IMG/VR virus record: IMGVR_UViG_3300042914_004341
Span: 1 to 61,793 of that record
Origin: a virus
Taxonomy: Duplodnaviria > Caudoviricetes
Strand: one strand, 5' to 3'
DNA: 61,793 nt
Position 1 is the first letter of the stretch. Each line of letters starts with the position of its first letter. This document shows, one piece after another, positions 599-57,232 of this stretch. The notes beneath the pieces were generated by a model. It ran no database searches and was not told the DNA's origin. It saw only the letters and a list, made by a program, of their open reading frames with translations. The translations under genes and the position numbers were made by a program.

Positions 599-655
599 TT
601 GGTAAGGATATACCTACTCCTCCCTGCGGTCGTCGTGTTCCTCCGGAACCTCCTC
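599..655. repeat. Long dispersed repeat copy 1 (palindrome plus hairpin module)
   Basis: TTGGTAAGGATATACCTACTCCTCCCTGCGGTCGTCGTGTTCCTCCGGAACCTCCTC; 55/57 identical to 21236-21292; inverted copy at 57179-57231. Confidence 0.95.
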
Positions 656-1113
656 CACAGCGGGAGCCGCAGGAGGCGAGCCCGGGACGCAGCCCCGCCG
701 TCGGGGCCGACCTCTGCCCGCCCTACAACCAGCCCCACACCCACACCTGCACACCCACAGCCCCCGACCCCCGCCGGCCCGTATGGCCCTGCCCGGATGG
801 CGCACGCCTGGGGCCGGCTTGGCCGGGCTGAATGTGGGCCTCGCGCTCCTTCCCCACGCCCGTCCCCTCCGGGTCCTGGGGCGCGGTCAGTCGCGCTGTG
901 GGTTCCCGTCCGCTGGGCACTCCGAAGGAGGGCCGCAGTCGCGCTGTGCCTGTGTACTGCGAGGCCCCTGCAGCACCGGCCAAAATAGTGCTTGACTTCA
1001 TGGCTGGTCTGTGCCAGCTTGGGCGCACCGCATGCACCCGCGGCCAGCCGGCCAAGGGCCCGCCAACCGGCCTGTCCCAACTCTGCTACTGTCAATCCTG
1101 CCCAATGCAAAAC

Positions 1114-1142
1114 GGGCCCCTGCAACGGGGGCCCACTTTTTT
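1114..1142 (+). terminator. Intrinsic terminator
   Basis: GGGCCCC-loop-GGGGCCC stem followed by ACTTTTTT. Confidence 0.6.
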
Positions 1143-1831
1143 GTCCTTGACTTGTGCGTAGGGCCGTGAGATATTGGAGTCTATCGCTGGGGACATTTGT
1201 GTGTCCGCGCAAGCGCCTTAACCCCGATGGCTGATTAGCAACCAGCCCGCCCGCCGGGGCGCCTGCAAGGATGCGGGGCCCGGCAACCCTCGCTCCGCTT
1301 CGGGCGGGGGAGGTCCCACCGACCCTTTCTTAGAGGCTGAGGGGTAGCGGAGGCCAATGTGCAGGTTCTGGCATGCGTGCGCAGAAGTCCGGCAGTAACC
1401 GTTGAGGCCCCCTCCCGGCGGCCCAACGGGACGCTTGAAGCTACCATAAGGCCGAGCGCACAGCCGCAAGCGATGCCCACTACCGTAGTGGTCACACGGA
1501 AGGAGTGTCTCGCTCCGCAGTTGGGCCGAACCCTTGCCGCTCGTCGTGGTAGATATCGACGAAGAGACGTTGCGCCGAGGACGTAAACCCAGGCACCACT
1601 AGCTGCCCGCCGCGTTTCTGTATAAGAACCCCGGCGGGCTCTTCTTATATCCCTGTCTGGAATATAAAGCAGAAATAAGCTGTTATATGCGCGTGGGGGA
1701 TATTGGGGCGTCGCCGCGGCTTGTCCTATGTGCCAAAACAAAAGGAACCAGCAGCACATGGCCGCTGGCTCCCCCCTGAAGGTGGAAAGTGTTCTTTTTA
1801 CTGGACCCAGTTGCATTTAGGCCCAAACTGT

Positions 1832-1860
1832 TTGACAGCCAAACACGTTCCGAGTACTGT
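1832..1860 (+). promoter_or_regulatory. sigma70-type promoter
   Basis: TTGACA-17 nt-TACTGT upstream of the RBS and ATG at 1906. Confidence 0.6.
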
Positions 1861-1905
1861 TGTAACACGCACCGTTGCATGGTGTCAACTATGAAGGAGC
1901 TTCAA

Positions 1906-2991
1906 ATGGCTGGATTCCTTGAAATCAAAACCCCCGATGGCAACGCCCTCAAGTTCAAAGGTTTCGCAGACTGCGGCGGCGAACTGCAATGGTTCCGCAC
2001 ACGCCTGACGCCCGGCCTCCTCGGCGCCCGCAGCAAAGAGCGGTGCCCCATCGTCGGCACCCTGACCGCCGGCCCCCAACGCCTCATCATCCTGGACCTC
2101 GACCCCAAGTGCGCCGCCGAGGCGGCCTGGGCCGAAGACCTTTGCCTGGCCCTGGCCGAGCGTCACGAGAACTGCCTGGCCTTCCAAAGCGTGTCTGGCA
2201 ACTGGAAGGCCGGGTTCTTGGTGACCACGGACTTCGTGCCGACAAGTGACGCGTGCGAAGCCTACCTTATGAGCATGCTGCCGGAGTCAGCCTGGGAACG
2301 CTTTGACCGCGCGGGCATGACTAGATTGTACCTGAACCAGAGGCTGGCGGACTTCCTCGCGAAGGCCCTCCCCGCGATGCCCGCGCCTTCTCTGCCCGAG
2401 CGCGTGAAGGTGGGGAGTAGGTATATCCTTACCAAACCAACGCAATCATGCACTTACCACATAGCGCAGGACCAATACTTGCCTACAGACGCCCTGCCCG
2501 CCGCTTTTCAGGACGGCCAGCGCAAGGCTCTTTTGAAGGTGCTTACAGCGGCCTGGGGCCTTGCCCAAGATGCGGGCTGGAACTTGCCCATCGAGCAGCT
2601 GGCCTTGAATATTGGCTCATCCCCTAGCCAAGTGTCTCGCATCCTTAAGGAACTCGTTCAAGAGGGCCTCATTGTCTGCATTGACCCCAGCTACCAAAAG
2701 GGCGTCAAAGCCAAAACCTACAAGGCTCGCGGGGCCCTTTTTCTGGCCATCCAACGCCACAAAGCTGACTACCTTCTTTCCGGTAAACCCACGAAATCTG
2801 TAAAGGAACTTCCGAACGCCATCCAGGATGGCCAGTTCCACCAGCTTTGCCTCCAGACCCTCAACCGTTTCCACTCCCAAGAGGCGTTCGCTGTCTATCT
2901 CCAGGGCCTACAGGGCCTGACTCCCAAGCGGCTCAAGGAAGGCATGCGGTACGCAAAATGCCATTTCCACAAACAGGGGCTCGCTGCATGA
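1906..2991 (+). CDS. AEP-family primase-polymerase-like domain fused to a winged-helix domain (putative replication protein)
   Basis: RBS AAGGAG at 1894; LIILDLD (DxD) and QSVSGNWK motifs resemble the BT4734/VirE_N-type AEP domain; IEQLALNIGSSPSQVSRILKELVQEGLI...KAKTY is a wHTH pattern. Confidence 0.6.
   Translation: MAGFLEIKTPDGNALKFKGFADCGGELQWFRTRLTPGLLGARSKERCPIVGTLTAGPQRLIILDLDPKCAAEAAWAEDLCLALAERHENCLAFQSVSGNWKAGFLVTTDFVPTSDACEAYLMSMLPESAWERFDRAGMTRLYLNQRLADFLAKALPAMPAPSLPERVKVGSRYILTKPTQSCTYHIAQDQYLPTDALPAAFQDGQRKALLKVLTAAWGLAQDAGWNLPIEQLALNIGSSPSQVSRILKELVQEGLIVCIDPSYQKGVKAKTYKARGALFLAIQRHKADYLLSGKPTKSVKELPNAIQDGQFHQLCLQTLNRFHSQEAFAVYLQGLQGLTPKRLKEGMRYAKCHFHKQGLAA
2414..2435 (+). repeat. 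Palindromic motif copy inside the prim-pol gene (interdomain linker)
   Basis: GGAGTAGGTATATCCTTACCAA, identical to 6739-6760 and to the reverse complement of 599-620. Confidence 0.9.
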
Positions 2992-3734
2992 ACGCGAAGG
3001 TATGCAGCAAGTGCGGGGTCGAGAAGGACAGGTCGGGGTTCAGTGCGGACAAGGGCAAGCCTGATGGGCTGTATGCACACTGTAAGACCTGCGCAAAGGG
3101 GGCGCACAAGGCTTACCGCGAAGCCAATCACGCCCAGGTGCTTGCGCAAGAGAAGGCCCGCTACGAGGCGAATCGTGCTAAGATGCTTGAGCGACACAAG
3201 GCTTACCGCGAGGCCAATCGGGGCAGGGTGCTTGCTCGCACGAAGGCACGCTACGAGGCCAATCAGGACAAGGAGCGTGCGCGAATGAAGGCACGCTACG
3301 AGGCCAATCGGGATAAGATACTTGCGCAAAAGAAGGCTTACCACGCAGAGTACTGCGCCAAGCACGGTGTAGCCCCCTCAACGGCCCTCCGCCGGCGTGC
3401 CCCCCAAGCCCGTCTCGCAGACATCCTGCGGAGCCGTTTGCGTGACGCCCTTAAGGGCAAATTCAAAACGGGCTCCGCCGTCCAGGACCTCGGTATGCCT
3501 ATTGATGACTTTCTCATGTATCTGAACCTGGGTGCACTAGACAAATACGGCATTCCGTACACCGGTAATGAATCGAAGTTCCACATCGACCACATCCGCC
3601 CCCTGTCTTCGTTTGATTTGGAAGACCCGGAGCAGTTGAGAATTGCGGTAAGATGGGATAACCTTCAAGTGCTCCGCGCTGAAGAAAATTTGAGAAAGGG
3701 AGCCAAGTGTCCAAGCCAATTGACCCAGAGTTGA
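2988..3734 (+). CDS. Free-standing HNH homing-type endonuclease 1
   Basis: N-terminal CSKC...CKTC zinc finger, helical repeats, C-terminal FHIDHIRPLSSF...NLQVL..EENL.K HNH motif; ATG overlaps upstream stop (ATGA). Confidence 0.85.
   Translation: MNAKVCSKCGVEKDRSGFSADKGKPDGLYAHCKTCAKGAHKAYREANHAQVLAQEKARYEANRAKMLERHKAYREANRGRVLARTKARYEANQDKERARMKARYEANRDKILAQKKAYHAEYCAKHGVAPSTALRRRAPQARLADILRSRLRDALKGKFKTGSAVQDLGMPIDDFLMYLNLGALDKYGIPYTGNESKFHIDHIRPLSSFDLEDPEQLRIAVRWDNLQVLRAEENLRKGAKCPSQLTQS
3108..3332 (+). repeat. Five tandem 45-bp (15-aa) repeats within HNH1
   Basis: KAYREANHAQVLAQE/KARYEANRAKMLERH/KAYREANRGRVLART/KARYEANQDKERARM/KARYEANRDKILAQK. Confidence 0.9.
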
Positions 3735-4273
3735 TAGACAGTAGGATGTTCAGAACCAAACACGTCGGACAACCTCCCAGCACGGTCGAGTACCGTCCGA
3801 CCGAAAGGCAGCGCAAGGCAAAGGCTCGCCTTCTCACTGCCTTACAAGAAGGCCGTGTCGCAGCAGGCTCTTTGTCACTACTCGATGTCAAGCAATTGGC
3901 CCAGTTGGCAAAGGCCCCTGATGTGTCCGGAGCCTGGGCAAAAGAACCCGGATTCCTTGCATGGCTAACTGATGATGCTGAAACACCTTCTAAAATCAAC
4001 TACTTGCGTTCCCTTGCACTGGATGCAGCCGAGAGTATCCTCAGCGATGTCGATGTGAAATCGGCTGGGGCTCGTGTGACTTTAATTAAGCTCCTTCTGG
4101 ACCAGCCCGAAATGCGCAAGGAAAAGGAACAGTTGACTATGGAAGGCTTGAAAGCTCTGGTACTTGAGCACAAACACGTGCTGCTGCCCCTACTTCAGTC
4201 TGATATCTCCTCGCCTCCTTCCTCCCAGTCTGCTACACTCCCCCAAGCCAAGGAGGGAGGCCGAAATGAGTGA
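3707..4273 (+). CDS. Hypothetical protein, candidate terminase small subunit
   Basis: 188-aa helical ORF upstream of TerL; assignment by position and size only; start uncertain. Confidence 0.4.
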   Translation: MSKPIDPELIDSRMFRTKHVGQPPSTVEYRPTERQRKAKARLLTALQEGRVAAGSLSLLDVKQLAQLAKAPDVSGAWAKEPGFLAWLTDDAETPSKINYLRSLALDAAESILSDVDVKSAGARVTLIKLLLDQPEMRKEKEQLTMEGLKALVLEHKHVLLPLLQSDISSPPSSQSATLPQAKEGGRNE

Positions 4274-4574
4274 GCCACGTATCCTGCCGCTAGCAGGCGG
4301 CAAACGTCCTGGACAGAAAGCCCTGAAAAAGTTTGCACTTGTCTTCCAGGACAAGAAGACGGTCTTCCATTTGGAGGCCGAAGACTACTTCCTCGCCACA
4401 ATCTCCAGCGAGGAGGCGGAGGAGCCCCTTGCCTACCACTTCAAGGTGGGCGGCAAAACCGTGCTGGAAATGCAGGCCAATGAAATCCTCCACGTCGTGG
4501 ACACGGACGCCGTGGACCTGCAGGCGCTCCTACACGCCATCAAACCCAAGCCCCAACGCAAGAAAAAGGAGTAA
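4266..4574 (+). CDS. Hypothetical protein
   Basis: RBS GGAGG, ATG overlapping the end of the upstream gene, GC3-biased codons. Confidence 0.6.
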   Translation: MSEPRILPLAGGKRPGQKALKKFALVFQDKKTVFHLEAEDYFLATISSEEAEEPLAYHFKVGGKTVLEMQANEILHVVDTDAVDLQALLHAIKPKPQRKKKE

Positions 4575-4579
4575 CTTCT

Positions 4580-5209
4580 GTGGCAAGTTCAAATTTTGTA
4601 TACAAAGCATACGTGGGCCGGGAAATCCCCCAGTCCCAAACTGACGTGGTCTGCCACAACCAGCCTGCCCTCCCGGTCAACGCCGATGGGTCCCGCTGGC
4701 GCTTTTCTGTCATCCTCGGGCGCGTTGCGGGCACGCCAGGCTTCCAGGTGCAGCACGGCACGCTGCCCGGCATTTTCGCCGACACCAAGGCCATGACGGA
4801 CGCGGTGGCCTCCGCAGGCTCCACCTGCACTTTCACCGCGGGCTCCAATGTGGTCAGCTGTACGTCGCACGGCTTCTCCGAGGGCCAGCACATTGCGTTC
4901 GCCACCTCGGGCGTGCTGCCTCCAGAGTACCTGCCCTCTCACCTCTACAGGGTGGCCCGTGTCATAGACTCCGACTCTTTCATTGCAGAGGTTGTGCAGC
5001 AGGCGGGATATTCTAATAACGTTGCCTCTGCCGTCGGGTCAGGTACGCATAAGGCCGTGGCCGCGCAGGAAGTCAGCATTACGTTCAACCCTGAGGTAGT
5101 GGCCGATGTTGCATACCTCCCGCTGAAGCAAGCCCTCCGCGTGGTCTGCACCACGGACGTGTCCGAGACGGCGCAGATTCTCGCCATCCACGTCATGAAT
5201 GGCATTTGA
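4580..5209 (+). CDS. Putative virion-associated beta-rich protein
   Basis: RBS AAGGAG; HGFSEGQHIAF...GVLP...YRV..IDSDSF pattern seen in FCCH-like domains of phage structural proteins. Confidence 0.5.
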   Translation: MASSNFVYKAYVGREIPQSQTDVVCHNQPALPVNADGSRWRFSVILGRVAGTPGFQVQHGTLPGIFADTKAMTDAVASAGSTCTFTAGSNVVSCTSHGFSEGQHIAFATSGVLPPEYLPSHLYRVARVIDSDSFIAEVVQQAGYSNNVASAVGSGTHKAVAAQEVSITFNPEVVADVAYLPLKQALRVVCTTDVSETAQILAIHVMNGI

Positions 5210-5233
5210 TTTCAGATGCTGCCGTGTTAGACT
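5206..5233 (+). promoter_or_regulatory. sigma70-type promoter for TerL
   Basis: TTGATT-16 nt-TAGACT with extended -10 TG. Confidence 0.4.
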
Positions 5234-5266
5234 GCCCCTGTTGTAACCCAACGGGGGCTTTGTTTT

Positions 5267-6733
5267 ATGTCCAATCTCCAAGACGCCATTCTCCAACTAG
5301 CGCACAAAGAGAAGCTCCAACGCCATGACGGCCTGAAAGCGGGCTCCAGGGCCACTCCGGCCCAGCAGGAGTTCATCAATGCCGCCTTGAATAGGGAGGC
5401 CCTGGTCCTGGACTGTCGGTCGGGAAACCGGGCCGGCAAATCCCTCACGCTGATGAAAATCTTTGCAGTCATGTTCCGCGAAGACCCCGCTGACGACTGG
5501 AAACGGCCGAAGCACTGGGTGGGGCCGCTGCAGCTGCTACTCCTGTCGCGTCAGCTCAAACAGGCTGAGGAATCCCTACTGCCAAAACTCCTGGCCCACC
5601 TGGAGCCGGATACCTACAGAGTAGTGCGCTCCGGGAATGCCCTGAACAAAATCGTGAACCTCAAGAATGGCAATACCATCCTGGTTTTCTCCCATCACGC
5701 CGTGGAACAGGCCCGAGCGGCGGTCCAGAGCTTCGATGCCCACTTCGGTGCAATAGATGAACTGCCTTCGGACCCCAAGCTCATCGAGGAACTCATGCAG
5801 CGCGTGTTCGTCCAGAAAGGATGCATCGCACTGACCTACACGCCCAAGGTTCCAGCGCCGCGGGTGAAAGAGTTCGTAGACAACATTCCGGCAGACCGCG
5901 TGAAACGGCTTCGGCTGTCCGTTCTTGATAACCCAGCAATTGATGAAGAGACCCGCGAGACCATACTCTCCACAGCACGCGCCCAGGGCGAAGCACACTT
6001 GGCCACGGTGTTATATGGCGAGTGGGCCCGTGGCGAAAATTCCGTTTTCGTATACGACCCCGACCGCCACAAAGCCTCACTTCCGGAGCACTACAACCCA
6101 CAGGCGTGGCGCCATGTCCTCAGCGCGGACCCCGCGTCATCATCAGAAACCGGCCTTGTGGTAGCCGCGGAGGACCCCCTGAGCCCAGGGCAGTGGTACC
6201 TAGTCTATGCCTCCTATGTCCAGCAAGGTCTGGAGGGCCAGGAGCTGGTGCGGGAGATAGAACGGCGGGTGGCCAGTATGCGCATAGTCCGGCGCATCTA
6301 CGACAGCGCCGCGTCGTGGTTTGAGCTTTCGGCCCGCGCAGTGGGCCTGACCTACATGCCCATCATGCACAAATCCAACCGCAAGCTGGAACTCATTGCC
6401 AATCTGAACTCCGCCCTGGGGCGCGTGGAGAAGGCTGGCCAGCGCCGCGTGCTGCTGACCCCCGCGTGTGCGGACCTTGAGGAGGAGCTTTTCAGCGCAA
6501 GCTGGAGTGCGGTCTCCGCCGAGAAGATTGCCCACGCCCACGAGTATCACACAGCGGATGCCGCGCAGTACCTTGTGGACCTCCTGCCACCCCCAGAGGC
6601 CAACTCTGGCCGGCCCGTGGCCAGTACGCCGCACGCCCGCATGATGGAGAACGCCAGAGTCCAGGCCGGGGTTGTGGAGAAGCCCAGACAGAAGATGTCC
6701 GTTGTCTGCAGGGCCAGGGCCTGGCTGCGGTGA
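5267..6733 (+). CDS. terL: Terminase large subunit
   Basis: Walker A RSGNRAGKS, Walker B GAIDE, TYTP coupling motif, RNase H-like SADP...YDSA...DAAQY acidic residues; upstream of portal. Confidence 0.92.
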   Translation: MSNLQDAILQLAHKEKLQRHDGLKAGSRATPAQQEFINAALNREALVLDCRSGNRAGKSLTLMKIFAVMFREDPADDWKRPKHWVGPLQLLLLSRQLKQAEESLLPKLLAHLEPDTYRVVRSGNALNKIVNLKNGNTILVFSHHAVEQARAAVQSFDAHFGAIDELPSDPKLIEELMQRVFVQKGCIALTYTPKVPAPRVKEFVDNIPADRVKRLRLSVLDNPAIDEETRETILSTARAQGEAHLATVLYGEWARGENSVFVYDPDRHKASLPEHYNPQAWRHVLSADPASSSETGLVVAAEDPLSPGQWYLVYASYVQQGLEGQELVREIERRVASMRIVRRIYDSAASWFELSARAVGLTYMPIMHKSNRKLELIANLNSALGRVEKAGQRRVLLTPACADLEEELFSASWSAVSAEKIAHAHEYHTADAAQYLVDLLPPPEANSGRPVASTPHARMMENARVQAGVVEKPRQKMSVVCRARAWLR

Positions 6734-6738
6734 TGGGT

Positions 6739-6760
6739 GGAGTAGGTATATCCTTACCAA
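6739..6760 (+). repeat. Palindromic motif copy between terL and the next gene
   Basis: GGAGTAGGTATATCCTTACCAA. Confidence 0.9.
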
Positions 6761-7035: not shown

Positions 7036-7105
7036 GTGCAAGTGTGCAAAGGAACCCGAGGGCAAACGCAAACGCTTCAGCATCGCCAAGGGGGCCTCTA
7101 AGTGA
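6926..7105 (+). CDS. Small Cys/Lys-rich hypothetical protein
   Basis: GGAG upstream; CAKC...CKC motif; stop overlaps the portal start. Confidence 0.45.
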   Translation: MDYGNSKPKMLKIKFGPAKGASQDSGCAKCKDAGSAECKCAKEPEGKRKRFSIAKGASK

Positions 7106-9090
7106 AACTCAGCATCTGGGACGCCGAGCAGGCGCCCAAAGAACTGGCCCGCCGGCTTGAGGCGGCCAAGAAAGCGCGTGCCCCGCTGGAGTACCACTGG
7201 AGCCAGACCGAACGTGTGTGCTACCAGACCTCCAGCAATGGGGGCTTCTTCACCGACGAGTCAAGCTGGGGCCTCCTGGGCAACAACGGCACGGACGAGG
7301 GCGGCGTAAACCCAACCCTGTCCGTGTCCTATTGCATGAAGAATATCAGGTTCTTACACAGCCAGATGTCCGCCAACCCACCCTCGGCCCTCGCACGCCC
7401 AAACTCTTCGGACCAGAAGGACAAGCGTGCAGCGGACGCGGCCAACCGCATTCTGGATTTCGGCAAGCGTAAGTACAAGTTCCAGAACCGTCAGGACATC
7501 GTGAACCTACACACCCTGGTCTATGGCACTGGCATCGGGAAAACGGAGTTTGACCCCGACGCAGGGCTGCCCATTGCATTCAATCCCGAAGACGACACCG
7601 TGGAGTTCGAAGGCGACTTTGCCTATACGCAGCCCCATCCGCGCAACATGTACCTGGACCCTGACGCCACGGACACTGATAGCATCCGCTGGGTATTCGA
7701 GCGCGTCTACATGCCCTACGAGGAGGCGCTGCGCCGCTTCCCCGAGTCGCACGATAAAATCAAGTCCCTGATGGAGCAGGCCGAAAACCAGCGTTTCTAC
7801 CATGGCGATGCCTCGGAGTCCTACTTCCAGTTTCAGCGTTTCCAGCGCCTGCCCATTTTCCAGTACTGGGAAAATGGCACGCCCGAGAATGGGCTGCAGG
7901 GACGGTTCGCATGGTGTCTCGAAGACGGTACAGTCCTGACGCGCAGCGAGGATGGCCGTGCCGTTCCTGTGGCCTCTCCCTATGCCTTCCCCGTGTACGC
8001 CGATGTCAGCGAGGAAAAGATTGGCACGTATGCCAGACTGCCCTACCACTTCCTGACAGACATCGACATCCCCGGCACCGCCTGGGGAATGCCAGTTGTG
8101 GCCTATGCGGTCCAGCTCCAGGACCTTCTGAATCACCTGGACATCGCCGCCGCGGACATCATCCAGGCCCACGGGGTTGCCCGCGTGCTCGTACCCGACT
8201 CTGCTGAACTGGCACAGGACGCAATCAACAACAACTCCTGGGACGTGGTGGTTTACGCAGGACAGCAGCCGCCCAAGTTCATGGAGCCCCTGCCATTCCC
8301 CCAAGCACTACCGGTGCTGCGCCAGCAGGTCAAGCAGGCTATTGATGACATCTTCGGCGTCACAGAACTGGCCATGGGACAACAGGCACGCGAGACGTCC
8401 GGCAACTCCATGCAGTTCGCCGTGGAGCAGTCCAACGTTGTCCGCCGCCGCCTGTTCAACAAACTGACCATGTATGTCGAGTCAGTCTACCAGGATTATC
8501 TCAGCCTGTGCGCCACAAACTGGACCACGCCCCGCACCATTAAAACCATCGGGCGCGAGCAGGCCATGGAAACCCTGGACATCAAGGGTTCTGACATACG
8601 CGCCGGCTACGACCTGCATGTGGAGTTCGGGACGCAGTTCAGCCTGGACCCAATCCAGCGTCGCATGGAAATTATGCAGCTTGCGCCTTTCTTCAAAGAA
8701 GCCGGCATCCCGATGCGCCAGATTCTCAGCATGATGAAGCTGTCGGACTTGTCGAGCCTGTATGACGCGGCCCAGCTCGCAGAGAGTAGACAGCGTGAGT
8801 ACTTCGACGAAATCATCAACACAGGGAAGCAGGTGCCCCCGGGGGCGAAAGAAGACCATGTTAACATGCTAAATTATGCCCTCCACTGGCGCATGACTTC
8901 AGAATTCTTCGACTTGCCCACGGACCTCCAGCAACTGTGTCTTGAGCACATCACGTTGCGCGAGGAACTCATGGCCACGGAAACCAAGCCCGCAGCCCCC
9001 GCAGGCCAGCCACCCGCGGCGGGGACCCCCCAGTCGGGCGTGGCGCCCGCAGAAAACCCACTGGCAGCTCTGGCTGGTCTACCTATGTAA
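7102..9090 (+). CDS. Portal protein (podovirus type)
   Basis: 662 aa between TerL and scaffold/capsid; VYGTGIGK, YLDPDA, LQDLLN, IFGVTE..MG...ETSG segments typical of P22-like portals. Confidence 0.88.
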   Translation: MKLSIWDAEQAPKELARRLEAAKKARAPLEYHWSQTERVCYQTSSNGGFFTDESSWGLLGNNGTDEGGVNPTLSVSYCMKNIRFLHSQMSANPPSALARPNSSDQKDKRAADAANRILDFGKRKYKFQNRQDIVNLHTLVYGTGIGKTEFDPDAGLPIAFNPEDDTVEFEGDFAYTQPHPRNMYLDPDATDTDSIRWVFERVYMPYEEALRRFPESHDKIKSLMEQAENQRFYHGDASESYFQFQRFQRLPIFQYWENGTPENGLQGRFAWCLEDGTVLTRSEDGRAVPVASPYAFPVYADVSEEKIGTYARLPYHFLTDIDIPGTAWGMPVVAYAVQLQDLLNHLDIAAADIIQAHGVARVLVPDSAELAQDAINNNSWDVVVYAGQQPPKFMEPLPFPQALPVLRQQVKQAIDDIFGVTELAMGQQARETSGNSMQFAVEQSNVVRRRLFNKLTMYVESVYQDYLSLCATNWTTPRTIKTIGREQAMETLDIKGSDIRAGYDLHVEFGTQFSLDPIQRRMEIMQLAPFFKEAGIPMRQILSMMKLSDLSSLYDAAQLAESRQREYFDEIINTGKQVPPGAKEDHVNMLNYALHWRMTSEFFDLPTDLQQLCLEHITLREELMATETKPAAPAGQPPAAGTPQSGVAPAENPLAALAGLPM

Positions 9091-41191: not shown

Positions 41192-41195
41192 GTGG

Positions 41196-48238: not shown

Positions 48239-48240
48239 AA

Positions 48241-50439: not shown

Positions 50440-50657
50440 TCATCCCTCCACACTCTGACAAAGAACTTGATGAGTTCAACAACTAGGATGACCGGTAACA
50501 CAATGTAAAGAAAGCTGAAGACAATGAAGGCGGCTATAAATGCTTTCAAACTTTCCCTCGCAGAGGCTTGCTCTCCTGCCGCAGAGACCCCGACTATGAA
50601 CCCAACGATGCTACACAAAATTTGCATGCCTAAGTAAAATAGAAGCGCACCGTGCAT
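50436..50657 (-). CDS. Small two-TM membrane protein
   Basis: Two hydrophobic helices. Confidence 0.65.
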   Translation of the reverse strand: MHGALLFYLGMQILCSIVGFIVGVSAAGEQASARESLKAFIAAFIVFSFLYIVLPVILVVELIKFFVRVWRDE

Positions 50658-50660
50658 GGC

Positions 50661-51032
50661 TTACTCCTCCTTCCGGCCCGCCGATGCCGCTGTGCTGAAC
50701 CCGTCAGGGTATCGTGCTGCCAGCTTGTCCCGAAGCACGCCCACGACTTCGGGCAGCGTCGTGTCCAGGGCCATGGCCGCGAGCTGTACATAATAAAGCA
50801 CGTCGCCGAGTTCTTTGATGGCCTTGTCCCTATCAAACACGCGCCCTTGCTCGTACGTCTTCTTGACCAAGTCCACAAACTCGCCGGCTTCGCCGGCCAG
50901 TCCCAGGGCACTGGACATGCGCATGCGCTCGCGGTCCGCCTCCAGGGGCCCATTCACGAGTGTGGAGTGGGTGCGGAGGACGACATCATGCAACTCGTAC
51001 AGTGCTGTGGAGAGGGGTAGTGCTGCTGTCAT
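50661..51032 (-). CDS. MazG-like nucleotide pyrophosphohydrolase
   Basis: LGLAGEAGE..D.VKK...KELGDVLYY...KL.ARYPDGF. Confidence 0.9.
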   Translation of the reverse strand: MTAALPLSTALYELHDVVLRTHSTLVNGPLEADRERMRMSSALGLAGEAGEFVDLVKKTYEQGRVFDRDKAIKELGDVLYYVQLAAMALDTTLPEVVGVLRDKLAARYPDGFSTAASAGRKEE

Positions 51033-51215
51033 TTGGGTTTCTCCTGCTTGGGTTTGAGGAAGGCGTCCATCTCATCGCGCATAGTCTGTTGCATGTCAAG
51101 TCTGTCTTGCCGTGCCTCGCGCGTTTCCAGTTCCCGGTCCTGGAACACTTCGGCCATGTCCGGGAAAAGTCCCAGGGCCTCCATTTCCACATGCCATTTC
51201 CAGAATCCTCGGAAG

Positions 51216-51869
51216 TCAAACACCTTCTTCCACCTCCTCTTCAACTTCATAGGACCCGCGCAATTCCACACAGGCGATGCGGTCGGACCCATAATCTGCT
51301 GCCCACTCATCCGCTTTTTCCTTGGTGGGGAAGTACAGATGACCCGTCGAGGGGCCCACGTTCACCCACCGCACAACCTCGACCGTCCGCTTCACTTTGC
51401 GCTTGGGTTTTTCGGTGCCTAGGTAAGTGATGAGGTCGTTGGGTCTGTCCCCATACATGTAGTGTTTCCCTTCTGCCGTCCAACCAGTATCCTTGGTCTT
51501 ATCTATGTGGTTTAGGAAACCCCAGACAGTATATCCCCAGCCTAGTCTAGGTGGGATAATCGCAATTATTTCCGCCAGCCCCCCCTCCCGCGTGCGGTAC
51601 CAGCCCAGTTTGCCTTCTGCTAGGGCTTGTGCTGCGGGGACCTCGGTTGCTTGCTGTTCCATGGGTTTCTCCTTTTTGTGGATGGATACGATGTCAAAAT
51701 ATGCATGATTTAGGTTCAACACTTTTTGAAAAAGTGAGCCATTTTTATCAACAAATGACAGTGCGTGGGTTCCATCATCAAGCGACGAGCATTCCACAAC
51801 TACAAGTAAATTTCCATCCTGTGTTTTAACCATATCGCCGACTTCCAGCTTGCTGAGGTCTACTGTCAT
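51216..51869 (-). CDS. Two-module SH3-like paralog-family protein
   Basis: MTVDLSKLEVGDMV..QDG...DIVSI, then internal AAGGAG-ATG and a YRTREG...WTAEG...DLI module. Confidence 0.6.
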   Translation of the reverse strand: MTVDLSKLEVGDMVKTQDGNLLVVVECSSLDDGTHALSFVDKNGSLFQKVLNLNHAYFDIVSIHKKEKPMEQQATEVPAAQALAEGKLGWYRTREGGLAEIIAIIPPRLGWGYTVWGFLNHIDKTKDTGWTAEGKHYMYGDRPNDLITYLGTEKPKRKVKRTVEVVRWVNVGPSTGHLYFPTKEKADEWAADYGSDRIACVELRGSYEVEEEVEEGV

Positions 51870-52267
51870 TGCTTCACCTCCATTGTGTCTTCCTTACGAG
51901 GAAAAAGGGACATCACGTATTCCCGCAAAGCCCCTTTGAACAGGAACTTGTCCAGCACAAACACAACCACAAGGAAGAAAACAACCTGTGTAGGCGAGGG
52001 GAGAAAGGACTTCACATCTTCGGCAAACGACTTGATATTCATATCGGATTTCCCTTCTAGTGCTTTTGTGAGTGCATCCATCTCTGCGTCTCTGTCCGCA
52101 GCCGTTTTGAACTGCAAAATGAACTTAGAATCAGCGAATTCTATGTGGTAAGGTGTTTTGGTTGTTGCTGCATCCGAAGTGCTTGGCCAAAAATGTGTCA
52201 CACTGTCTAGTATGACTACCTCGTTTGGTATTGAGAACTGTGTTTTGTAAACTTTCCTTGCTGTCAT
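51866..52267 (-). CDS. Hypothetical protein with a C-terminal TM segment
   Basis: VVFFLVVVFVL segment; AT-rich. Confidence 0.55.
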   Translation of the reverse strand: MTARKVYKTQFSIPNEVVILDSVTHFWPSTSDAATTKTPYHIEFADSKFILQFKTAADRDAEMDALTKALEGKSDMNIKSFAEDVKSFLPSPTQVVFFLVVVFVLDKFLFKGALREYVMSLFPRKEDTMEVKQ

Positions 52268-52339
52268 TTGGTTCCCTAAAATAGAAGGGCACGCCTAGCT
52301 AGCGTGCCCCGTGGGGGTTATGTACTGTCCCGCAAGGGC

Positions 52340-52783
52340 TTACTTGGCCTTGGGCTTCCACTTGTTCACGAAGTAAGCCTTGCCCTCGTGCTCGCCCACG
52401 AAGTCTACAATCTCTCCGCCCTTCTTCTCAAGGAAGCTGACGGTCTCGAACTTGCCCTTCTCATCTTCCTCGCTGGCCTTGACGCGCTTCTTGAGGACGT
52501 TCTTGCCGTCTCGGTCAACTGTGACAAAGAACTTCACCAGTGGGTTCTTCTTAATCTCGGTGTCGTCTTCCTCGCGTGGCAGCATCTCGGCACCGCCCAG
52601 GGCATTGGCATCCGTGCCGAAGCTGGTTGGGAACAGGAATGCAAGCGTCTGGTACACGCGCTTGGACTTGTCTTCTTCCTGTGGGTTGATGCACACGGAC
52701 AGCGTGTGCGTGGGGGTCTTGCCGGGTTTGTACTTCTTGGTGGAAGAAGAAGGGTTGGACTTAGAGACTGATGCGATGGCCAT
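52340..52783 (-). CDS. Hypothetical protein (possible ssDNA-binding/recombination accessory)
   Basis: RBS AAGGAG; strong codon bias; follows the exonuclease; function by context only. Confidence 0.5.
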   Translation of the reverse strand: MAIASVSKSNPSSSTKKYKPGKTPTHTLSVCINPQEEDKSKRVYQTLAFLFPTSFGTDANALGGAEMLPREEDDTEIKKNPLVKFFVTVDRDGKNVLKKRVKASEEDEKGKFETVSFLEKKGGEIVDFVGEHEGKAYFVNKWKPKAK

Positions 52784-52864
52784 TCGGAGGCTCCTTGTTT
52801 GGGGTACGCCCATGCTGGACGCACCAGTGATGTAACTCGTGTCGGTGTGCGAAGTCAAGCGGGA

Positions 52865-53974
52865 TTATTCCTGCGCCTTCTCTTTGGCCCAGGCATTTAC
52901 CATGCCAAGCCACTTTTGCGTGGAAGTTTCGCCCTGCCCATGCGCACGCTCACACACGGCTTGCAACGCACAATACTGACATTCGCGCCACTTTGCTTCA
53001 TTGCCAAACACATCGAGCGTGGCGGGTTCCGGCGGGAGTACGTCGGTTTCCACCGCATTGGCTGCGGTCTCGTAGTACTCCTCGATACCTTCATCCGTCA
53101 CCAGCGTTTTCCGCGCAGCCTCCTCGAAGTTCAGGTCCGAGGGGGCAATCCACAAACGCTTGGTCCCGTCTTCCTCGTCCTCCCAGCTGAGCGTGAAGGT
53201 GTGGACGAACGGAAGCACGCGGAAGATTTGCTGGCTCGGTGGCTGGGCCGGCCTCCCCGGCTTCACGTTTCCGTTCTTGTACACCTTCTCAGGCGTGGCC
53301 TCTTTACCGTCATCCAACTTGTAGTCGCACTTGTCCGAGTGCCTTTCCCCGTAACGTGGGAAGTGACGCTGGACCCAGGAGAACTGGTCCTGGTTGCCCA
53401 TCACATGAAAGTTGACACGGTTTGTGTACGCAAGTGTGAAAGGTACTCCTAGAACCATGCTGTAGTGCGCGGCCTGACAAACGTGTGCAGTTTTGGGCTT
53501 GTCCTGGAGGACGTCGCGGGCCGTCCACATGCTACTCACTTGCTTGAGTTCCAAGCCGTGCTGCGGCAAGCCATCCGCGCCCGCCAGCACAATGTCTGGC
53601 CTGCCCGTCACGGGCGTGCCGTTGCGCGTGGCCCAGTACGTGGGCACATCCTCCTCACGCAGGAGCACGCCCTTACCCTGCCCTGTCCAGCTGCGTTCAA
53701 GCCATGTCGCCCAGCTGTCCTCGTTCGACAGCCCGAGTTGGAACATAAGTGACTTGGAGCCATAGTCCTCGTCGTCGGGGACTTCCGTGCCGAGCATACG
53801 GAGCAGGGCCTTACGTGCGCATCCGCCGATACTACGCAGGCCCTCGTCCGTCTGCACCAGACTGCCGGAGTTACCCCCGCGCAGCACTCCCACTTTCTCC
53901 GCTTCCTTGCCGTCCTTCTCCGCCTTTTCCAGCAGGGCCCCCTCCAGTAGGAGCCCCTTCACGTCGATTTGCAT
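52865..53974 (-). CDS. Cas4-like PD-(D/E)xK exonuclease
   Basis: GGCARK, GRPDIV, LELK, QAAHY, CQYC.....C (1+3 Cys Fe-S pattern). Confidence 0.82.
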   Translation of the reverse strand: MQIDVKGLLLEGALLEKAEKDGKEAEKVGVLRGGNSGSLVQTDEGLRSIGGCARKALLRMLGTEVPDDEDYGSKSLMFQLGLSNEDSWATWLERSWTGQGKGVLLREEDVPTYWATRNGTPVTGRPDIVLAGADGLPQHGLELKQVSSMWTARDVLQDKPKTAHVCQAAHYSMVLGVPFTLAYTNRVNFHVMGNQDQFSWVQRHFPRYGERHSDKCDYKLDDGKEATPEKVYKNGNVKPGRPAQPPSQQIFRVLPFVHTFTLSWEDEEDGTKRLWIAPSDLNFEEAARKTLVTDEGIEEYYETAANAVETDVLPPEPATLDVFGNEAKWRECQYCALQAVCERAHGQGETSTQKWLGMVNAWAKEKAQE

Positions 53975-54260
53975 TGCCCTGTTCCCTTTTGCGTTTGCGG
54001 TACTCCCGCATGTGTTCGTTACACTTGTCCCTGTTGGCAGTCCACCACGCCCGCTTGTTCGCTAGGCGTTCCTCGTCCCTGCCATCCACAAAGCGGGCCT
54101 GCTTTTGCCTGGCTGCCTCGCAAGTCTTGCAACGCGGCTTGCGCCCGTTGCACCCTTGTTGTTGCACGTGGAAGGCTTCCCAGGGCAGGTAACCCTGGCA
54201 ACCTTTGCACACTCTGCCCCAGGGGTCATCTTTTATCTGCAAGGATTGTTTCCTCCGCAA
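53871..54260 (-). CDS. Zinc-finger/helical protein resembling an HNH endonuclease N-terminus without a nuclease domain
   Basis: VCKGC...AF...G....CKTC plus WWTANRDK.NE.MREYR, as in the HNH1-3 N-termini. Confidence 0.6.
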   Translation of the reverse strand: MRRKQSLQIKDDPWGRVCKGCQGYLPWEAFHVQQQGCNGRKPRCKTCEAARQKQARFVDGRDEERLANKRAWWTANRDKCNEHMREYRKRKREQGNANRREGAPTGGGPAGKGGEGRQGSGESGSAARG

Positions 54261-54876
54261 TTTGCATCACCGTGGGCAGGGCCCGGCGGAGTACATCCCG
54301 CACGGCCTCTGCTACCAGTCTGTGTTCAAGCTGTGTACCATTGCCCAGACGTGTCTGGAGGTAGTGCAGCCAACTCCGGACCGAGCCGGTCATGTACAGC
54401 CTAGACTGGACCATGCCTTCTGGGAGCACTGCCCGGGCACACTCCTTGGCAATCCCCTTGCGTAGTGCCTCCCTGTAAGTGTTCATGGCAGCGTCGTATG
54501 CCCGCATCTGGGCCATGCTGAACCAGTCCTGGGTGTCCTTCGGCATGTCTGCCACGCTGTTTTGTCTGTTCTTGGTGTCCTGTCTGCGGGCCTGGACCTT
54601 GATGGGCTCATCCCTAACTTGTTCGTAACGCTGGCTGAACTCCGAGAAAGTAAAGCTACGGTGCCTAAGCAGCTGCCTCGCGATGGCCCTCGAAGTCTCA
54701 ATTTCGAGGGTGGCATAGCCGTGCTCAAACACGGACCAGTGGCCATGCTTTAAACAGTAGGTGAGCAGCTTCTTAAACTCGGGGTTGGTTTGGTTGGGAC
54801 TGGAAACGCGTGCCACGTAGGCCATGGTCTTTTCTGCATCGGGCGTAATGGCAATCAGGGTCGCCTTCGGTTCCAT
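54226..54876 (-). CDS. thyX: Flavin-dependent thymidylate synthase
   Basis: HWSVFEH, RHRSFTFSEFSQRY, KECARAVLP, TQLEHR motifs. Confidence 0.96.
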   Translation of the reverse strand: MEPKATLIAITPDAEKTMAYVARVSSPNQTNPEFKKLLTYCLKHGHWSVFEHGYATLEIETSRAIARQLLRHRSFTFSEFSQRYEQVRDEPIKVQARRQDTKNRQNSVADMPKDTQDWFSMAQMRAYDAAMNTYREALRKGIAKECARAVLPEGMVQSRLYMTGSVRSWLHYLQTRLGNGTQLEHRLVAEAVRDVLRRALPTVMQIAEETILADKR

Positions 54877-54885
54877 CGGGCCTCC

Positions 54886-55260
54886 TCATTCGTGAATAAG
54901 ATTCCCCCGCACATAGAGTAGGAACACGCGCTTGCCTCGCTCCTCGCCGATGATAATGAAGTGCGGGATGTCACGCTTGCGTGCGGGGCGCAGGAAAATC
55001 TCAAGGTCGGACAACTTGTACGCCTCTGCGGATACGTAGTGTGGCTGCATGCCCGTCCTGGGGGGCCACTCCTCTGCTCGGTGAGCGAAGATGCATGCCC
55101 CCACGGCCCTAGAATCCGGGGTCACGGGCAGGATTCTTTCCGCCTTCGGCATCTTGTGCCGGCTCTTGGGGGCTGACTTTGGTCTGGCCATAGGCAGGTC
55201 CAGGCAGCCAGTGCAATCAGTATCAGGGCAATCGCAGGAAGCAGGGGGACGACGAGCCAT
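54886..55260 (-). CDS. Hypothetical protein with an N-terminal Cys cluster
   Basis: CDCPDTDCTGC; RBS GGGAG. Confidence 0.55.
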   Translation of the reverse strand: MARRPPASCDCPDTDCTGCLDLPMARPKSAPKSRHKMPKAERILPVTPDSRAVGACIFAHRAEEWPPRTGMQPHYVSAEAYKLSDLEIFLRPARKRDIPHFIIIGEERGKRVFLLYVRGNLIHE

Positions 55261-55317
55261 GGTGGAAACTCCCTTCGAGTTCGCACCATAGCACGCGTCG
55301 GCCCTGCCTGTCTCGGG

Positions 55318-55944
55318 CTATTTCCCATTGAAGTCAAAGTCCTTGGGCAGGAAAGACTTGCGGGTCTGGGTCAGCGTGACCCTGCCTACCGTGGCGGGAA
55401 AAAGTGTGGTGAACTTGTCCCCTGTGAAGCGGGTTTCCTCGAACATGTGGAGGACCTCACAAGAGGGCTTCGGGAGTTGGGCCCACTTTGTACGCAACGG
55501 GACGCAGGACGTAGGCTGCATGGGCCCCAAGCCCTGTCGCACATCTGCCGCCATGTCCTCTGAAGTCTGCATGGCCCGCTGCGTTAGTTGGTAAAAGTCC
55601 GCCCCAGAAAACAGCATGTCCGCAGGGAGCCTTGCGGCAGCCGAGTGAAAAATGAACTCACTGTCCCGGGCCACTACGATGCGGTGGCACCCAGGGAGCA
55701 CAGACTGCAAGGCCGCGGAGTATGCCCTCGAAACCATACACGTAGCCTGGACGTTCTGGAGGGCCTGCCCAATAAGCCTGCCGAGGTCGATAACACCGCC
55801 CCGAGAGTGTACCACGGCGACGACGTGCACGCGTTCGCCCGCCCGTTTGGCGGCCTCGGCCTGGGCCAATGCGAGCAGGAATTCTTGCAGGCCGGGGGCC
55901 CCCGGTTCAATAGCCATGGTCAGGTGGAGAAGAAAGAACTTCAT
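55318..55944 (-). CDS. ClpP-like serine protease homologue
   Basis: VHSRGGVI, AYSAA (catalytic Ser), FIFH motifs. Confidence 0.65.
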   Translation of the reverse strand: MKFFLLHLTMAIEPGAPGLQEFLLALAQAEAAKRAGERVHVVAVVHSRGGVIDLGRLIGQALQNVQATCMVSRAYSAALQSVLPGCHRIVVARDSEFIFHSAAARLPADMLFSGADFYQLTQRAMQTSEDMAADVRQGLGPMQPTSCVPLRTKWAQLPKPSCEVLHMFEETRFTGDKFTTLFPATVGRVTLTQTRKSFLPKDFDFNGK

Positions 55945-55946
55945 AC

Positions 55947-56318
55947 TTAGCACCTCTCTAGTTTGGGAAGGGAGGACCACGGTCTGGCCTTGCTTCCGGT
56001 TAAAGCCTCAAACGCGCCGGGCGTCAAGTCCAAACCACGCTTGCCATGGTAGCGTGGGTTTCCCTTGTCATTGACCCATATGGCCACACAAGGGCCCTCG
56101 CCCGCCCTAAGGAAAAGCCAGTGCGGCCTGACCCTATACCGCGCGGGCATAAACACCGCCGCCGTGGGCCGGCGCGGGTCAAACGTCTCGCCCGATGCAG
56201 TCTGTGCACCATACGCACACGGGCGCGGCGCGTGGGTGTCCCCACACGCCACCTCGCCCAGGCCGTACACAGAAGCGGGCAGTGTGATGGCCTGCGCGGC
56301 AAAGATGAAAAAGCCCAT
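55947..56318 (-). CDS. RlpA-like double-psi beta-barrel protein
   Basis: TASGETFDP...TAA, VNDKG, LDLTPGAFEAL. Confidence 0.82.
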   Translation of the reverse strand: MGFFIFAAQAITLPASVYGLGEVACGDTHAPRPCAYGAQTASGETFDPRRPTAAVFMPARYRVRPHWLFLRAGEGPCVAIWVNDKGNPRYHGKRGLDLTPGAFEALTGSKARPWSSLPKLERC

Positions 56319-56410
56319 AAGGTTCCTCCAGAAATGGGCGCGCACAACCGGGCACACAAACACGGAACCCTCTACTGAGCGGCCCCGCGGCCGGTGCCTG
56401 CGTGCTTTGC

Positions 56411-57232
56411 TTAGTTTCTAGGTACAACGTACAGCGTGGCCGTAATGGCCGTGCCGCCCGCCTGCAACGTGCTGTCGAGCCCGCCGCCTGCCACACTCAC
56501 GGTCACGTTTGCCTCCTGCGCCAAGACAACATCACCCAGCACGGGGACCAGGGAACCAAGGTCGCAAGCGTACATACCAACACGGGCACCTTTGAGGGTG
56601 AACCCCGTACCGGGCATTGTGGCGTTGTCCCCGTTGCCTTGGTAGCAGTAGCGAACCGAACCAAGCTGGATGTATGCCCACCCCGTTCCCGCCGCGCCCG
56701 ATGCTAACGGGAGGGTCTGCGGCAACGTCCACAGCCCGGCCACGGCGGGGCCAACGTAGCTGTCCCAGTACGACGGGCCGTAGGTGCGGGATGCCGCGAG
56801 CACGAGTGTCTGAGGCGCACCCCAAGGTGCGGCTCCGTCCTGTCCGTCCACTCCGTCCTGCCCTGCCGGGCCCGCTACCCCGGGCAACCCCTGCGGACCA
56901 GCTGGGCCGGCCTCGCCTGTCGCGCCCGTCTCGCCGGGCACGCCCGTTGACCCTGGCAACCCTTGCGGGCCCGCTTCCCCTGCCTGCCCGTCCTTGCCGA
57001 GCTGTCCCGGTGAGCCATCTGTCCCAGGCACACCCTGCGGGCCGGGTGTTCCCCGGGGGCCGGCCACACCGGGCCGGCCGTCCTTGCCGTCGCTGCCGTC
57101 GTCGGGGTCCGCGGCGTCACGCAGGAATCCGCACCCGCCAGCGGCCAGCGTGAGCAAAGAGAAAGTTACGAAGCGGGTGAGGTTCCGGAGGAACACGACG
57201 ACCGCAGGGAGGAGTAGGTGTATCCTTACCAT
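56411..57232 (-). CDS. Collagen-like lipoprotein
   Basis: RBS AGGAG; lipobox-like LAAGGC; about 30 Gly-X-Y triplets; C-terminal beta domain. Confidence 0.8.
57179..57231. repeat. Long dispersed repeat copy 3 (inverted), in frame after the ATG of the collagen-like gene
   Basis: Reverse complement is 52/53 identical to 600-652. Confidence 0.95.

Follow-up and report, generated by a model that had tools for sequence, protein, structure and literature searches.

This study concerns a small two-hairpin cassette in the genome of a tailed phage, IMG/VR record IMGVR_UViG_3300042914_004341 (Duplodnaviria; Caudoviricetes). The whole record, 61,793 bp with a GC content of ~0.6, was analyzed and is called the window. 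Seven copies of the cassette lie in it, six on the minus strand and one on the plus strand, the strand being that of the purine-rich face. They are numbered here as modules 1 to 7, at 620, 17978, 21274, 36778, 37004, 49713 and 57182, respectively. Each module consists of two small stacked hairpins, A and B, that together span 34-56 nt, and some are fused to a copy of a 19-mer repeat. The original prediction, which was made from the sequence alone, had named seven such loci, and all seven were found where it placed them. The parts of the modules are as follows.

599-617, minus strand: 19-mer GTAGGTATATCCTTACCAA, fused 3' of module 1.
616-636, minus strand: module 1 hairpin B, AC GA C GA CC GCA GG GA G GA GT, with two G.A layers; it abuts hairpin A without a spacer.
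637-649, minus strand: module 1 hairpin A, GTTCC-GGA-GGAAC, with a 5-bp stem.
17974-17994, minus strand: module 2 hairpin B, AT GA C GA AC GAA GT GA G GA AT.
17996-18028, minus strand: module 2 hairpin A, an outer GTTTCC/GGAAAC stem with a 21-nt insert that holds the hairpin GTTCC-TGT-GGAAC (18002-18014).
21236-21254, minus strand: 19-mer variant GTAGGGGTATCCTTACCAA, fused 3' of module 3.
21253-21273, minus strand: module 3 hairpin B, identical in sequence to that of module 1.
21274-21286, minus strand: module 3 hairpin A, GTTCC-GGA-GGAAC.
36750-36772, minus strand: module 4 hairpin B, CG GA GG GA AC GAA GT GA CT GA CG.
36778-36794, minus strand: module 4 hairpin A, GTTTTCC-GAA-GGAAAAC, with a 7-bp stem.
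36981-37003, minus strand: module 5 hairpin B, GC GA CC GA GC GGA GC GA GG GA GT.
37004-37016, minus strand: module 5 hairpin A, GTTCC-GAA-GGAAC.
49699-49711, minus strand: module 6 hairpin B, with one layer, C GA CC GAA GG GA G, followed by AGGTGG.
49713-49727, minus strand: module 6 hairpin A, GTTTCC-GAA-GGAAAC, with a 6-bp stem.
57182-57194, plus strand: module 7 hairpin A, GTTCC-GGA-GGAAC, in the only window copy with its purine face on this strand.
57195-57215, plus strand: module 7 hairpin B, identical in sequence to that of module 1.
57214-57232, plus strand: 19-mer variant GTAGGTGTATCCTTACCAT, fused 3' of module 7.

Hairpin A has a stem of 5, 6 or 7 bp (GTTCC, GTTTCC or GTTTTCC) and a loop of GGA or GAA. 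The stem of hairpin B alternates one or two Watson-Crick pairs with two, and once three, tandem G.A layers; the module 6 copy has a single layer. In all six two-layer copies hairpin B lies 3' of hairpin A at a distance of 0-6 nt, and four copies have no spacer. The G.A hairpin had been described as a 13-nt mini-hairpin. It is actually 21-23 nt long with two tandem G.A layers in 6/7 copies, and the module 4 copy extends up to 31 nt when a third layer, seen by eye (AT GA ... GA AT, ~36746-36776), is added. The longer fold was first indicated by an RNA energy model, then confirmed by a rule-based scan. The structural rule (outer 2 bp, GA, 1-2 bp, GA, 2 bp, GNA, 2 bp, GA, 1-2 bp, GA, 2 bp) took the place of a covariance approach, as a MAFFT alignment of nine copies broke the structure.

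The number of modules exceeds chance expectation. The combined pattern TTCC-N3-GGAA-N(1-14)-GA-NN-GNA-NN-GA, which was chosen after the data had been seen, gave seven matches in the window and a mean of 0.01 in 100 dinucleotide-preserving shuffles, none of which (0/100) reached seven. The expectation that the pattern count would stand above that of a shuffled genome was thus borne out. Hairpin A by itself (GTTCC-N3-GGAAC) was found five times, compared with 0.07 in shuffles. The structural rule for the two-layer G.A hairpin identified six sites in the window, while 200 window shuffles yielded a mean of 0.01. Three of the loci, 600-652 on the minus strand, 21237-21289 on the minus strand and 57179-57231 on the plus strand, are copies of one 53-62-nt repeat with 94-98% identity, so the seven modules amount to some five sequence types that are independent of one another. 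The G.A hairpin is missing from an eighth palindrome, at 38689-38703, whose loop is 5 nt long. The partial copy proposed at ~1289-1302 is weak, with a 13-nt stretch in common with the modules by eye; an 18-mer search allowing up to 3 mismatches found 36982-36999 only, and did not recover it.

Outside the window the structural rule identified the two-layer hairpin twice, both times in G002, a related record of 31.8 kb. The scan covered ~2.1 Mb, and neither the five complete relatives nor the other loci in it had a two-layer hairpin. The cassette as a whole was likewise seen only in the window phage and G002 when related records and viral contigs were searched, and a scan of viral contigs with a degenerate 23-mer produced a match in G002 only. 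The same 23-mer was used to look for a host REP-like element in one genome per species. This candidate was rejected, as the five single matches came from unrelated taxa and none was followed by a G.A hairpin. We found no description of a two-hairpin cassette of this kind in a phage in the open-access papers searched. The cassette is real, structured and lineage-specific.

The sequence types were placed in a structure-aligned table to examine which positions vary. The inner pair of hairpin B is C-G, G-C or A-T in the four to five sequence types, and the outer pairs alternate between A-T and C-G, G.T and C-G, C-G and G-C, or A-T and T-A. Every GA/GA position is invariant in all copies. Covarying stems with constant GA/GA positions had been predicted, and the table confirms them; the loop-closing C:G is fixed as well. 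Both arms of hairpin B read NN-GA in the 5' to 3' direction and are noncomplementary at GA/GA. This arrangement is what would be expected of a single-strand fold with sheared G.A pairs and not of a double-stranded protein site, and an operator palindrome was rejected for hairpin B on the same grounds. Among the 16 loops of the seven window modules, 15 are GNA triloops closed by 5'C:G3', the exception being the TGT inner loop of module 2. C:G-closed GNA triloops and stacked tandem G.A pairs are features described for folded DNA in the literature. According to an excerpt of PMC13037366, DNA mini-hairpins form with GNA loops only, and a hairpin of the d(GCGAAGC) type melts at 76.5 C compared with 39 C for its RNA counterpart. 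An excerpt of PMC10085684 describes stable DNA hairpins built of repeating G:C and sheared G:A blocks. The modules are therefore structure-conserved in the way the original prediction proposed.

They are also non-coding. Open reading frames (ORFs) at 599, 21236 and 57232(-) would share an 18-aa N-terminal peptide. This coding interpretation was rejected for 21236, where G002 differs in sequence and has 2 nt more; the 2-nt difference also rules out a long TTG-started frame at module 3, and conservation with relatives in this area begins only at 21413. Near module 7, a collagen-repeat protein is encoded at 56411-57232 on the minus strand. It has a lipoprotein-like signal (…LTLAAGGC) and its true start is uncertain; with ATG 57232 as the start, codons 1-17 would be the 19-mer and module 7 in reverse complement, ahead of this signal.

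The 19-mer GTAGGTATATCCTTACCAA has eight copies in the window at up to 3 mismatches and none in shuffles. In addition to the three copies fused to modules 1, 3 and 7, there are five free-standing copies, all in the gene arm of the plus strand.

2417-2435, plus strand: free-standing 19-mer.
6742-6760, plus strand: free-standing 19-mer.
14421-14439, plus strand: free-standing 19-mer.
31202-31220, plus strand: free-standing 19-mer.
32715-32733, plus strand: free-standing 19-mer.

Composite copies keep one order throughout, hairpin A, hairpin B, then the 19-mer, in 3/3 cases in the window and 2/2 in G002. The 19-mer is fused in 5/9 module copies (3/7 in the window and 2/2 in G002). A conserved xCTTAx box lies ~17 nt past TTACCA. 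Relatives whose portal proteins are 47-49% identical have kept a variant, GTAGGACTATCCTTAACA, that follows GGAGGAG; one of its positions is that of window 2417, inside the homologue of the gene at 1906-2991. The copies at 6742, 31202 and 32715 lie 26-43 nt ahead of start codons, a placement suggestive of a promoter or an activator site. By eye the 19-mer has no resemblance to a sigma-70 promoter. Because all three window composites point against their neighbouring genes, we left the 19-mer as a conserved protein-recognition site, putatively promoter-like or bound by an initiator. A resemblance to the nick sites of other podoviruses would make it a candidate nick site as well. Modules 1 and 7 are inverted copies, each beside a 19-mer, ~5.2 kb apart across the ends of the record, and the five further modules lie elsewhere.

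Comparison with G002 revealed rapid turnover of the cassette. G002 covers window 4963-36264, for the most part at 93-95% identity and at 81-85% at the 4963-6561 end. Module 2 is absent from G002, with ~50 nt replaced by 11 nt. At the module 3 site, G002 has the hairpin B variant of module 5 and a hairpin A loop of GAA for GGA. At the 31202 site, where the window has a bare 19-mer, G002 has a complete module plus 19-mer on the plus strand. Wherever a module differs between the window and G002, the change consists of an indel or of the variant of another copy in its place. These losses, swaps and gains indicate that cassettes are exchanged between loci within a few percent of divergence, and the recombination between copies that had been suggested as a possible role for the modules is visible in them. 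Strand specificity, another part of that suggestion, is not strict, given the plus-strand copy in the window and the further one in G002.

Turnover of this kind brings two other explanations into view. The cassette could be a selfish or neutral mini-repeat, propagated by gene conversion and of no use to the phage. Presence or absence of copies and variant swaps between genomes that are 93-95% identical would fit such a repeat, and so would its absence from the more distant relatives searched. Compensatory change that keeps a non-canonical fold in four to five sequence types argues for selection on structure, and we consider a functionless repeat very unlikely. The cassette could also be a recombining regulatory element of the PeSL type, in which stem-loops and the 19-mer recognition site mark the borders of transcription units, homologous exchange shuffles genes, and the G.A fold is secondary. 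An excerpt of PMC4122927 describes PeSLs as composite terminator/promoter motifs of T4-like phages that mediate indels. The fixed order of module and 19-mer in 5/9 copies is as expected of such an element, as are module differences that are all indels or variant replacements and a 19-mer that is conserved at 47-49% portal identity and lies 26-43 nt before three starts. An ORF starting ~90 nt from module 2 leads into an endonuclease VII-like gene, 590 nt of which are missing in G002, and G002 has another such nuclease gene at the place of the window's 6742 19-mer. The modules would nevertheless make poor intrinsic terminators, with stems of 5-7 bp and no T-run, and neither the sequence of the 19-mer nor the direction of the three composites is that of a promoter serving the neighbouring genes. 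A PeSL-type element also leaves unexplained why GA/GA and the C:G-closed GNA loop are kept through compensatory change. We regard it as quite unlikely, although a serious alternative.

The endonuclease VII/HNH-like genes deserve a separate description. Three paralogues lie on the plus strand at 2988-3734, 11811-12509 and 18190-18909, the last being the one that is truncated in G002. They match phrog_1035 (E ~1e-19 to 1e-20) and are AT-richer than their surroundings. The AT-rich gene at G002 28760-29600 was judged similar by eye. These genes look like free-standing homing-type nucleases. Just past module 2, at 18050-18093 on the plus strand, a GC-rich hairpin is followed by TTTTCTTTT, an intrinsic terminator by eye, which G002 has kept though module 2 has not been.

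The gene at 1906-2991 is of interest as the possible reader of the cassette.

1906-2991, plus strand: 361-aa protein with an N-terminal primase-like domain, akin to the archaeo-eukaryotic primase (AEP) family, a disordered linker and a C-terminal MarR-like winged helix.

At E <= 1e-3, 104 homologues were identified, many aligned end to end; closer homologues (P0124-P0128) are 83-90% identical and lie on contigs of up to 30.8 kb. The structural model has a mean predicted local distance difference test score (pLDDT) of 91 and consists of two domains joined by the disordered linker (residues 168-182), with a pLDDT of 96 for the N-terminal domain. D64, D66 and D134 are invariant in 38 aligned homologues, and S97 and K101 are nearly so. 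In BFVD a VirE N-terminal protein ranks first among the structural neighbours of the N-terminal domain (E 5.5e-3, prob 0.97); VirE, primase or Prim-Pol names are carried by 11 of the 50 matches listed. The PDB gave no neighbour at E 1e-3; Prim-Pol, LigD polymerase and NrS-1 entries appeared with TM scores up to 0.42 and E >= 0.09. The suggestion that this gene encodes a prim-pol therefore holds in part: the N-terminal domain folds confidently and its best neighbours are VirE_N and Prim-Pol proteins, while the matches themselves are weak. Among the proteins that were scanned, none was identified as DnaB, DnaG or another primase, in line with the earlier remark that no DnaB/DnaG gene is evident. 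The 19-mer at 2417-2435 lies in the linker-coding part of the gene, in this phage and likewise in relatives, a placement that we take to resemble origins within initiator genes. The protein is a candidate reader of the cassette signals.

These observations can be assembled into a mechanism. The cassette would fold on the purine-rich strand when that strand is single-stranded or extruded. Hairpin A, with its 5-7 bp and C:G-closed GNA triloop, would stack end to end on hairpin B, with its tandem sheared G.A pairs and C:G-closed GNA triloop, and the folded cassette would resist coating by single-strand binding protein. By analogy with RepB' at RSF1010 ssiA, it might then mark the primer start for the phage's own 1906-2991 protein. 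In composite copies the neighbouring 19-mer would serve as the double-stranded docking site of the winged helix, one such site being within the linker-coding part of the putative primase gene itself, and copies would spread and be exchanged by recombination between repeats. We propose tentatively that the cassette is a DNA-level initiation signal. That its use is priming, taken alone, is rather doubtful. The complete scheme, in which a dsDNA podovirus uses dispersed, strand-biased, self-folding cassettes as start sites for its own winged-helix-fused AEP-type primase, with the 19-mer for docking, and in which these cassettes, through a new DNA fold, would be to the phage what ssi signals are to plasmids, is unlikely to be right in all its parts.

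A number of results weigh against initiation from folded DNA. Ordinary lagging-strand priming would need more than seven sites at a spacing of 0.2-17 kb. At 5-7% divergence one copy is absent, one swapped and one new on the opposite strand; none of the copies therefore looks essential by itself, and the preference for one strand is a loose one. In more distant related records the combined pattern was found in 0/10, and at least some of these cassette-less relatives carry a homologue of the 1906-2991 gene. For that protein, Pfam and PHROGs gave no match to the N-terminal domain, and the primase assignment rests on matches with E >= 5e-3. Although 6/7 purine faces lie on the G-rich strand, we felt that GC skew deserved little weight, since opposite coding-strand biases of the two gene arms could also explain the skew; in relatives, as here, the coding strand of the structural arm is rich in C. 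The predicted energies of the fold do not differ significantly from those of shuffles in any copy (z of -1.65 to +0.91 as DNA and -0.79 to +0.56 as RNA). The DNA and RNA energy parameter sets give no credit for the stability of GNA loops or sheared G.A pairs in DNA. Finally, ViennaRNA returned the G.A-layer fold as the RNA minimum free energy structure in 5/7 copies (-8.6 to -11.5 kcal/mol), and three modules are placed as an element of messenger RNA might be.

Those three are modules 4, 5 and 6 (3/7), which are co-oriented with minus-strand genes and lie 0-10 nt ahead of start codons, with the GGGAG or GGAGG of the 3' arm of hairpin B as the ribosome-binding site (RBS). Hairpin B of module 4 overlaps GTG 36759 and precedes ATG 36744 (93-98-aa ORF), GGGAG in that of module 5 is the RBS of ATG 36976 (58-aa ORF), and module 6 precedes ATG 49692 (110-aa ORF). 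For this reason an RNA leader was kept as an alternative. Hairpin A would protect or mark the 5' region. The RBS (GGGAG) would be kept in the G.A hairpin, folded weakly enough to be opened by a protein or the ribosome, and translation or processing of the next gene would be adjusted in this way; oppositely oriented copies would be recombination remnants without activity. The extra copy in G002 is co-oriented with the adjoining late gene, which agrees with a leader. Tandem G.A pairs are common and stable in RNA too. Four modules fit it poorly. At modules 2, 3 and 7 the purine face is on the strand opposite the flanking conserved genes, so the local mRNA would carry the U/C face and cannot hold the fold. 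Module 1, just past ORF 67-570(+) and at the edge of 570-1789, is opposite to the sole nearby ORF with a positive coding score. In composites, moreover, the promoter-like 19-mer lies downstream of the module. With a single exception the loops are GNA triloops and not the tetraloops usual in selected RNA hairpins, and mini-hairpins of RNA are far less stable. Rfam 15 gave no match at gathering score in the whole window; the one weak match near a module, to a snoRNA model (E 0.027) on the other strand near 36956, is at chance level. Nor was the RNA fold of 21212-21425 unusual (z = 0.34), and a promoter/terminator scan of 36300-50300 was not above shuffles. All seven modules start within ~30 nt of the stop codon of the preceding gene. 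This would be expected of any intergenic element, so it does not discriminate between readings.

RNA is favoured by the three copies that form translation initiation regions and by the stability of tandem G.A pairs in RNA. The C:G-closed GNA loops, the melting data for mini-hairpins, the described G:C/sheared G:A blocks, the mixed orientation to transcription and the position of the module upstream of the 19-mer all favour DNA. On balance, we lean slightly toward a fold that forms in DNA rather than RNA. An RNA-level role of the cassette is possible though not probable, and the specific leader outlined above is doubtful. A folded-DNA signal with a possible role in the initiation of DNA synthesis is the best reading, with the RNA leader and the PeSL-like cassette as serious alternatives.

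If the cassettes do act as folded DNA, this tailed dsDNA phage would be among the few with sequence-specific signals for single-strand initiation, and the cassette would be a natural multi-layer tandem-G.A DNA helix maintained by compensatory change. It would also provide a handle on how DNA synthesis is primed in phages without DnaG/DnaB-type enzymes. Should it turn out to be an RNA leader or a recombination cassette, it still shows a small structured repeat moving within, and reshuffling, a phage lineage. In either case the element is short and well defined.

The remaining genes place the cassette in its genomic setting. CheckV estimates the 61,793-bp record to be complete. A search for end repeats gave none, and the GC skew does not change sign anywhere along the genome. 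Large virion proteins are encoded on the plus strand, in an arm from ~1906 to 36470, and the replication, nucleotide and lysis genes form the minus-strand arm. A translated comparison with five complete relatives placed the coding strand as plus at 1915-36221 and as minus at 38864-57106. Profile and annotation scans identified the following genes.

7102-9090, plus strand: P22/SU10-like portal.
37478-37939, minus strand: M15 peptidase.
39665-41191, minus strand: Rad3/DinG-like helicase.
43273-46605, minus strand: family A DNA polymerase, 1110 aa, with a LAGLIDADG insert.
50661-51032, minus strand: MazG.
52865-53974, minus strand: Cas4/RecE-like nuclease.
54226-54876, minus strand: ThyX.

The LAGLIDADG-like stretch comprises residues 744-811 of the polymerase and suggests an intein or an inserted homing endonuclease. 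In the gene of the 809-aa virion protein there is a perfect 36-nt tandem duplication (29252-29323). Two 81-nt repeats with 79% identity, at 60711-60791 and 60966-61046, contain the RBS and ATG of small minus-strand ORFs and are probably repeated upstream regions of early genes. Next to module 1, ~1.2 kb at 570-1789 has no ORF with a positive coding score. Sigma-70-like promoters were seen by eye (TTGACT-17-GATATT at ~1148-1180 and TTGACA-17-TACTGT at ~1832-1860), together with terminator-like hairpins at about 1114-1143 and 1606-1650. This region may be a structured RNA of ~460 nt or a control/origin region; Rfam gave a chance-level match only. Two distantly related records have dense 12- and 18-nt direct repeats of an iteron-like kind near their ends (G004 ~1700-5500; G008 ~1-4500 and 59000-59352), which have no counterpart in the window.

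The sequence is present in the 24 runs listed, all of them water metagenomes, from lake and other freshwater sources. No RNA run was among the 24. Contigs of four runs, compared with 17500-37400, gave short window-identical pieces only, with no ends and no informative variants. The phage collection had no match to the window DNA or to the portal protein.

Four known systems, in addition to the PeSLs, come closest to the cassette. The uses on record for DNA hairpins of this kind are priming and transcription from single strands. The first system is the early promoter of phage N4. The hairpin that the N4 virion polymerase reads has 5-7 bp in its stem, and its GGA or GAA loop of 3 nt is closed by C:G and has a purine in the middle, according to excerpts of PMC13037366 and PMC4496689. 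An N4-type promoter here would be an extruded hairpin A bound on the template strand by a virion single-subunit RNA polymerase. N4 promoters do work as extruded single-stranded DNA, and 6/7 A hairpins agree with the N4 description in stem, loop and closure. The initiation flank differs: N4 needs +1C and an A run 5' of the template-strand hairpin (excerpt of PMC4496689), whereas the 5' flank of the purine-face hairpin here is GGAG, GGGG, GGAC or GGTC. Under the template-strand rule, modules 4, 5 and 6 (3/7) would fire against their genes. The mixed orientations and the additional G.A hairpin, which N4 promoters do not have, set the cassette further apart. In PHROGs the virion proteins of 1827, 809 and 1166 aa matched no polymerase, and neither did the 1827-aa protein when compared with PDB sequences and the Atlas, although a very divergent enzyme is possible. 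Membership of the N4-promoter family is not supported, and we consider an N4-type promoter highly improbable.

The second comparison is with the sites where host PriA assembles a primosome, as in phiX174 and ColE1/pBR322. A resemblance to ColE1 with one base different had been stated in the original prediction. Hairpin B of module 5 does match ColE1 1327-1343 at 16/17 bases, the sole mismatch being the loop centre (GTA for GGA), and among 200 ColE1 shuffles two gave any match at up to 3 mismatches. The match is limited to one 17-nt mini-hairpin with unrelated flanks, and the other six copies have other sequences. ColE1 1327-1343 presumably lies in the mapped PriA site. Both systems would involve strand-specific folded DNA. 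Known PriA sites are described as larger fork-like hairpins (excerpt of PMC5778457), an architecture and size that are not evident in the two small stacked hairpins. Membership of the PriA assembly-site family is not supported, and use of the cassette by host PriA seems scarcely credible.

With the PeSLs, the cassette shares repeated intergenic composites of a stem-loop and a conserved site, 3/7 modules in the window and 2/2 in G002 being fused to the 19-mer. It also shares borders with indels and replacements, namely the loss of module 2, the swap at module 3, the new copy at the 31202 site and the nuclease gene in place of the 6742 19-mer. It differs from them in having no T-run after its stems, no sigma-70-like promoter, composites that face against neighbouring genes, and a stem held by non-canonical G.A pairs.

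GNA triloops closed by C:G, and G:C pairs alternating with sheared G:A pairs, are also found in d(GCGNAGC) mini-hairpins, CGAG blocks and Streptomyces telomeres, where palindromes with GNA loops in the overhangs serve primed patching of the ends. Those sequences are terminal overhangs, a human promoter repeat or synthetic oligonucleotides; here the elements are dispersed cassettes inside a dsDNA phage genome.

The plasmid RSF1010 offers a further parallel. Its ssiA and ssiB signals are short hairpins with a C-GAA-G mini-hairpin tip that are used by the replicon's own non-DnaG primase, and at ssiA the mini-hairpin CCGAAGG is read by the primase RepB' (excerpt of PMC13037366). Here, CCGAAGG forms the tip of three A hairpins and also occurs in hairpin B of module 6, and the candidate reader is a predicted primase-like/winged-helix protein. 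The pair of signals on opposite strands at one origin, beside initiator-binding repeats, may have a counterpart in module 1 on the minus strand and module 7 on the plus strand, each with its 19-mer. Where RSF1010 has two signals at one origin, the window phage has seven dispersed copies with a second, G.A-layer hairpin and rapid turnover.

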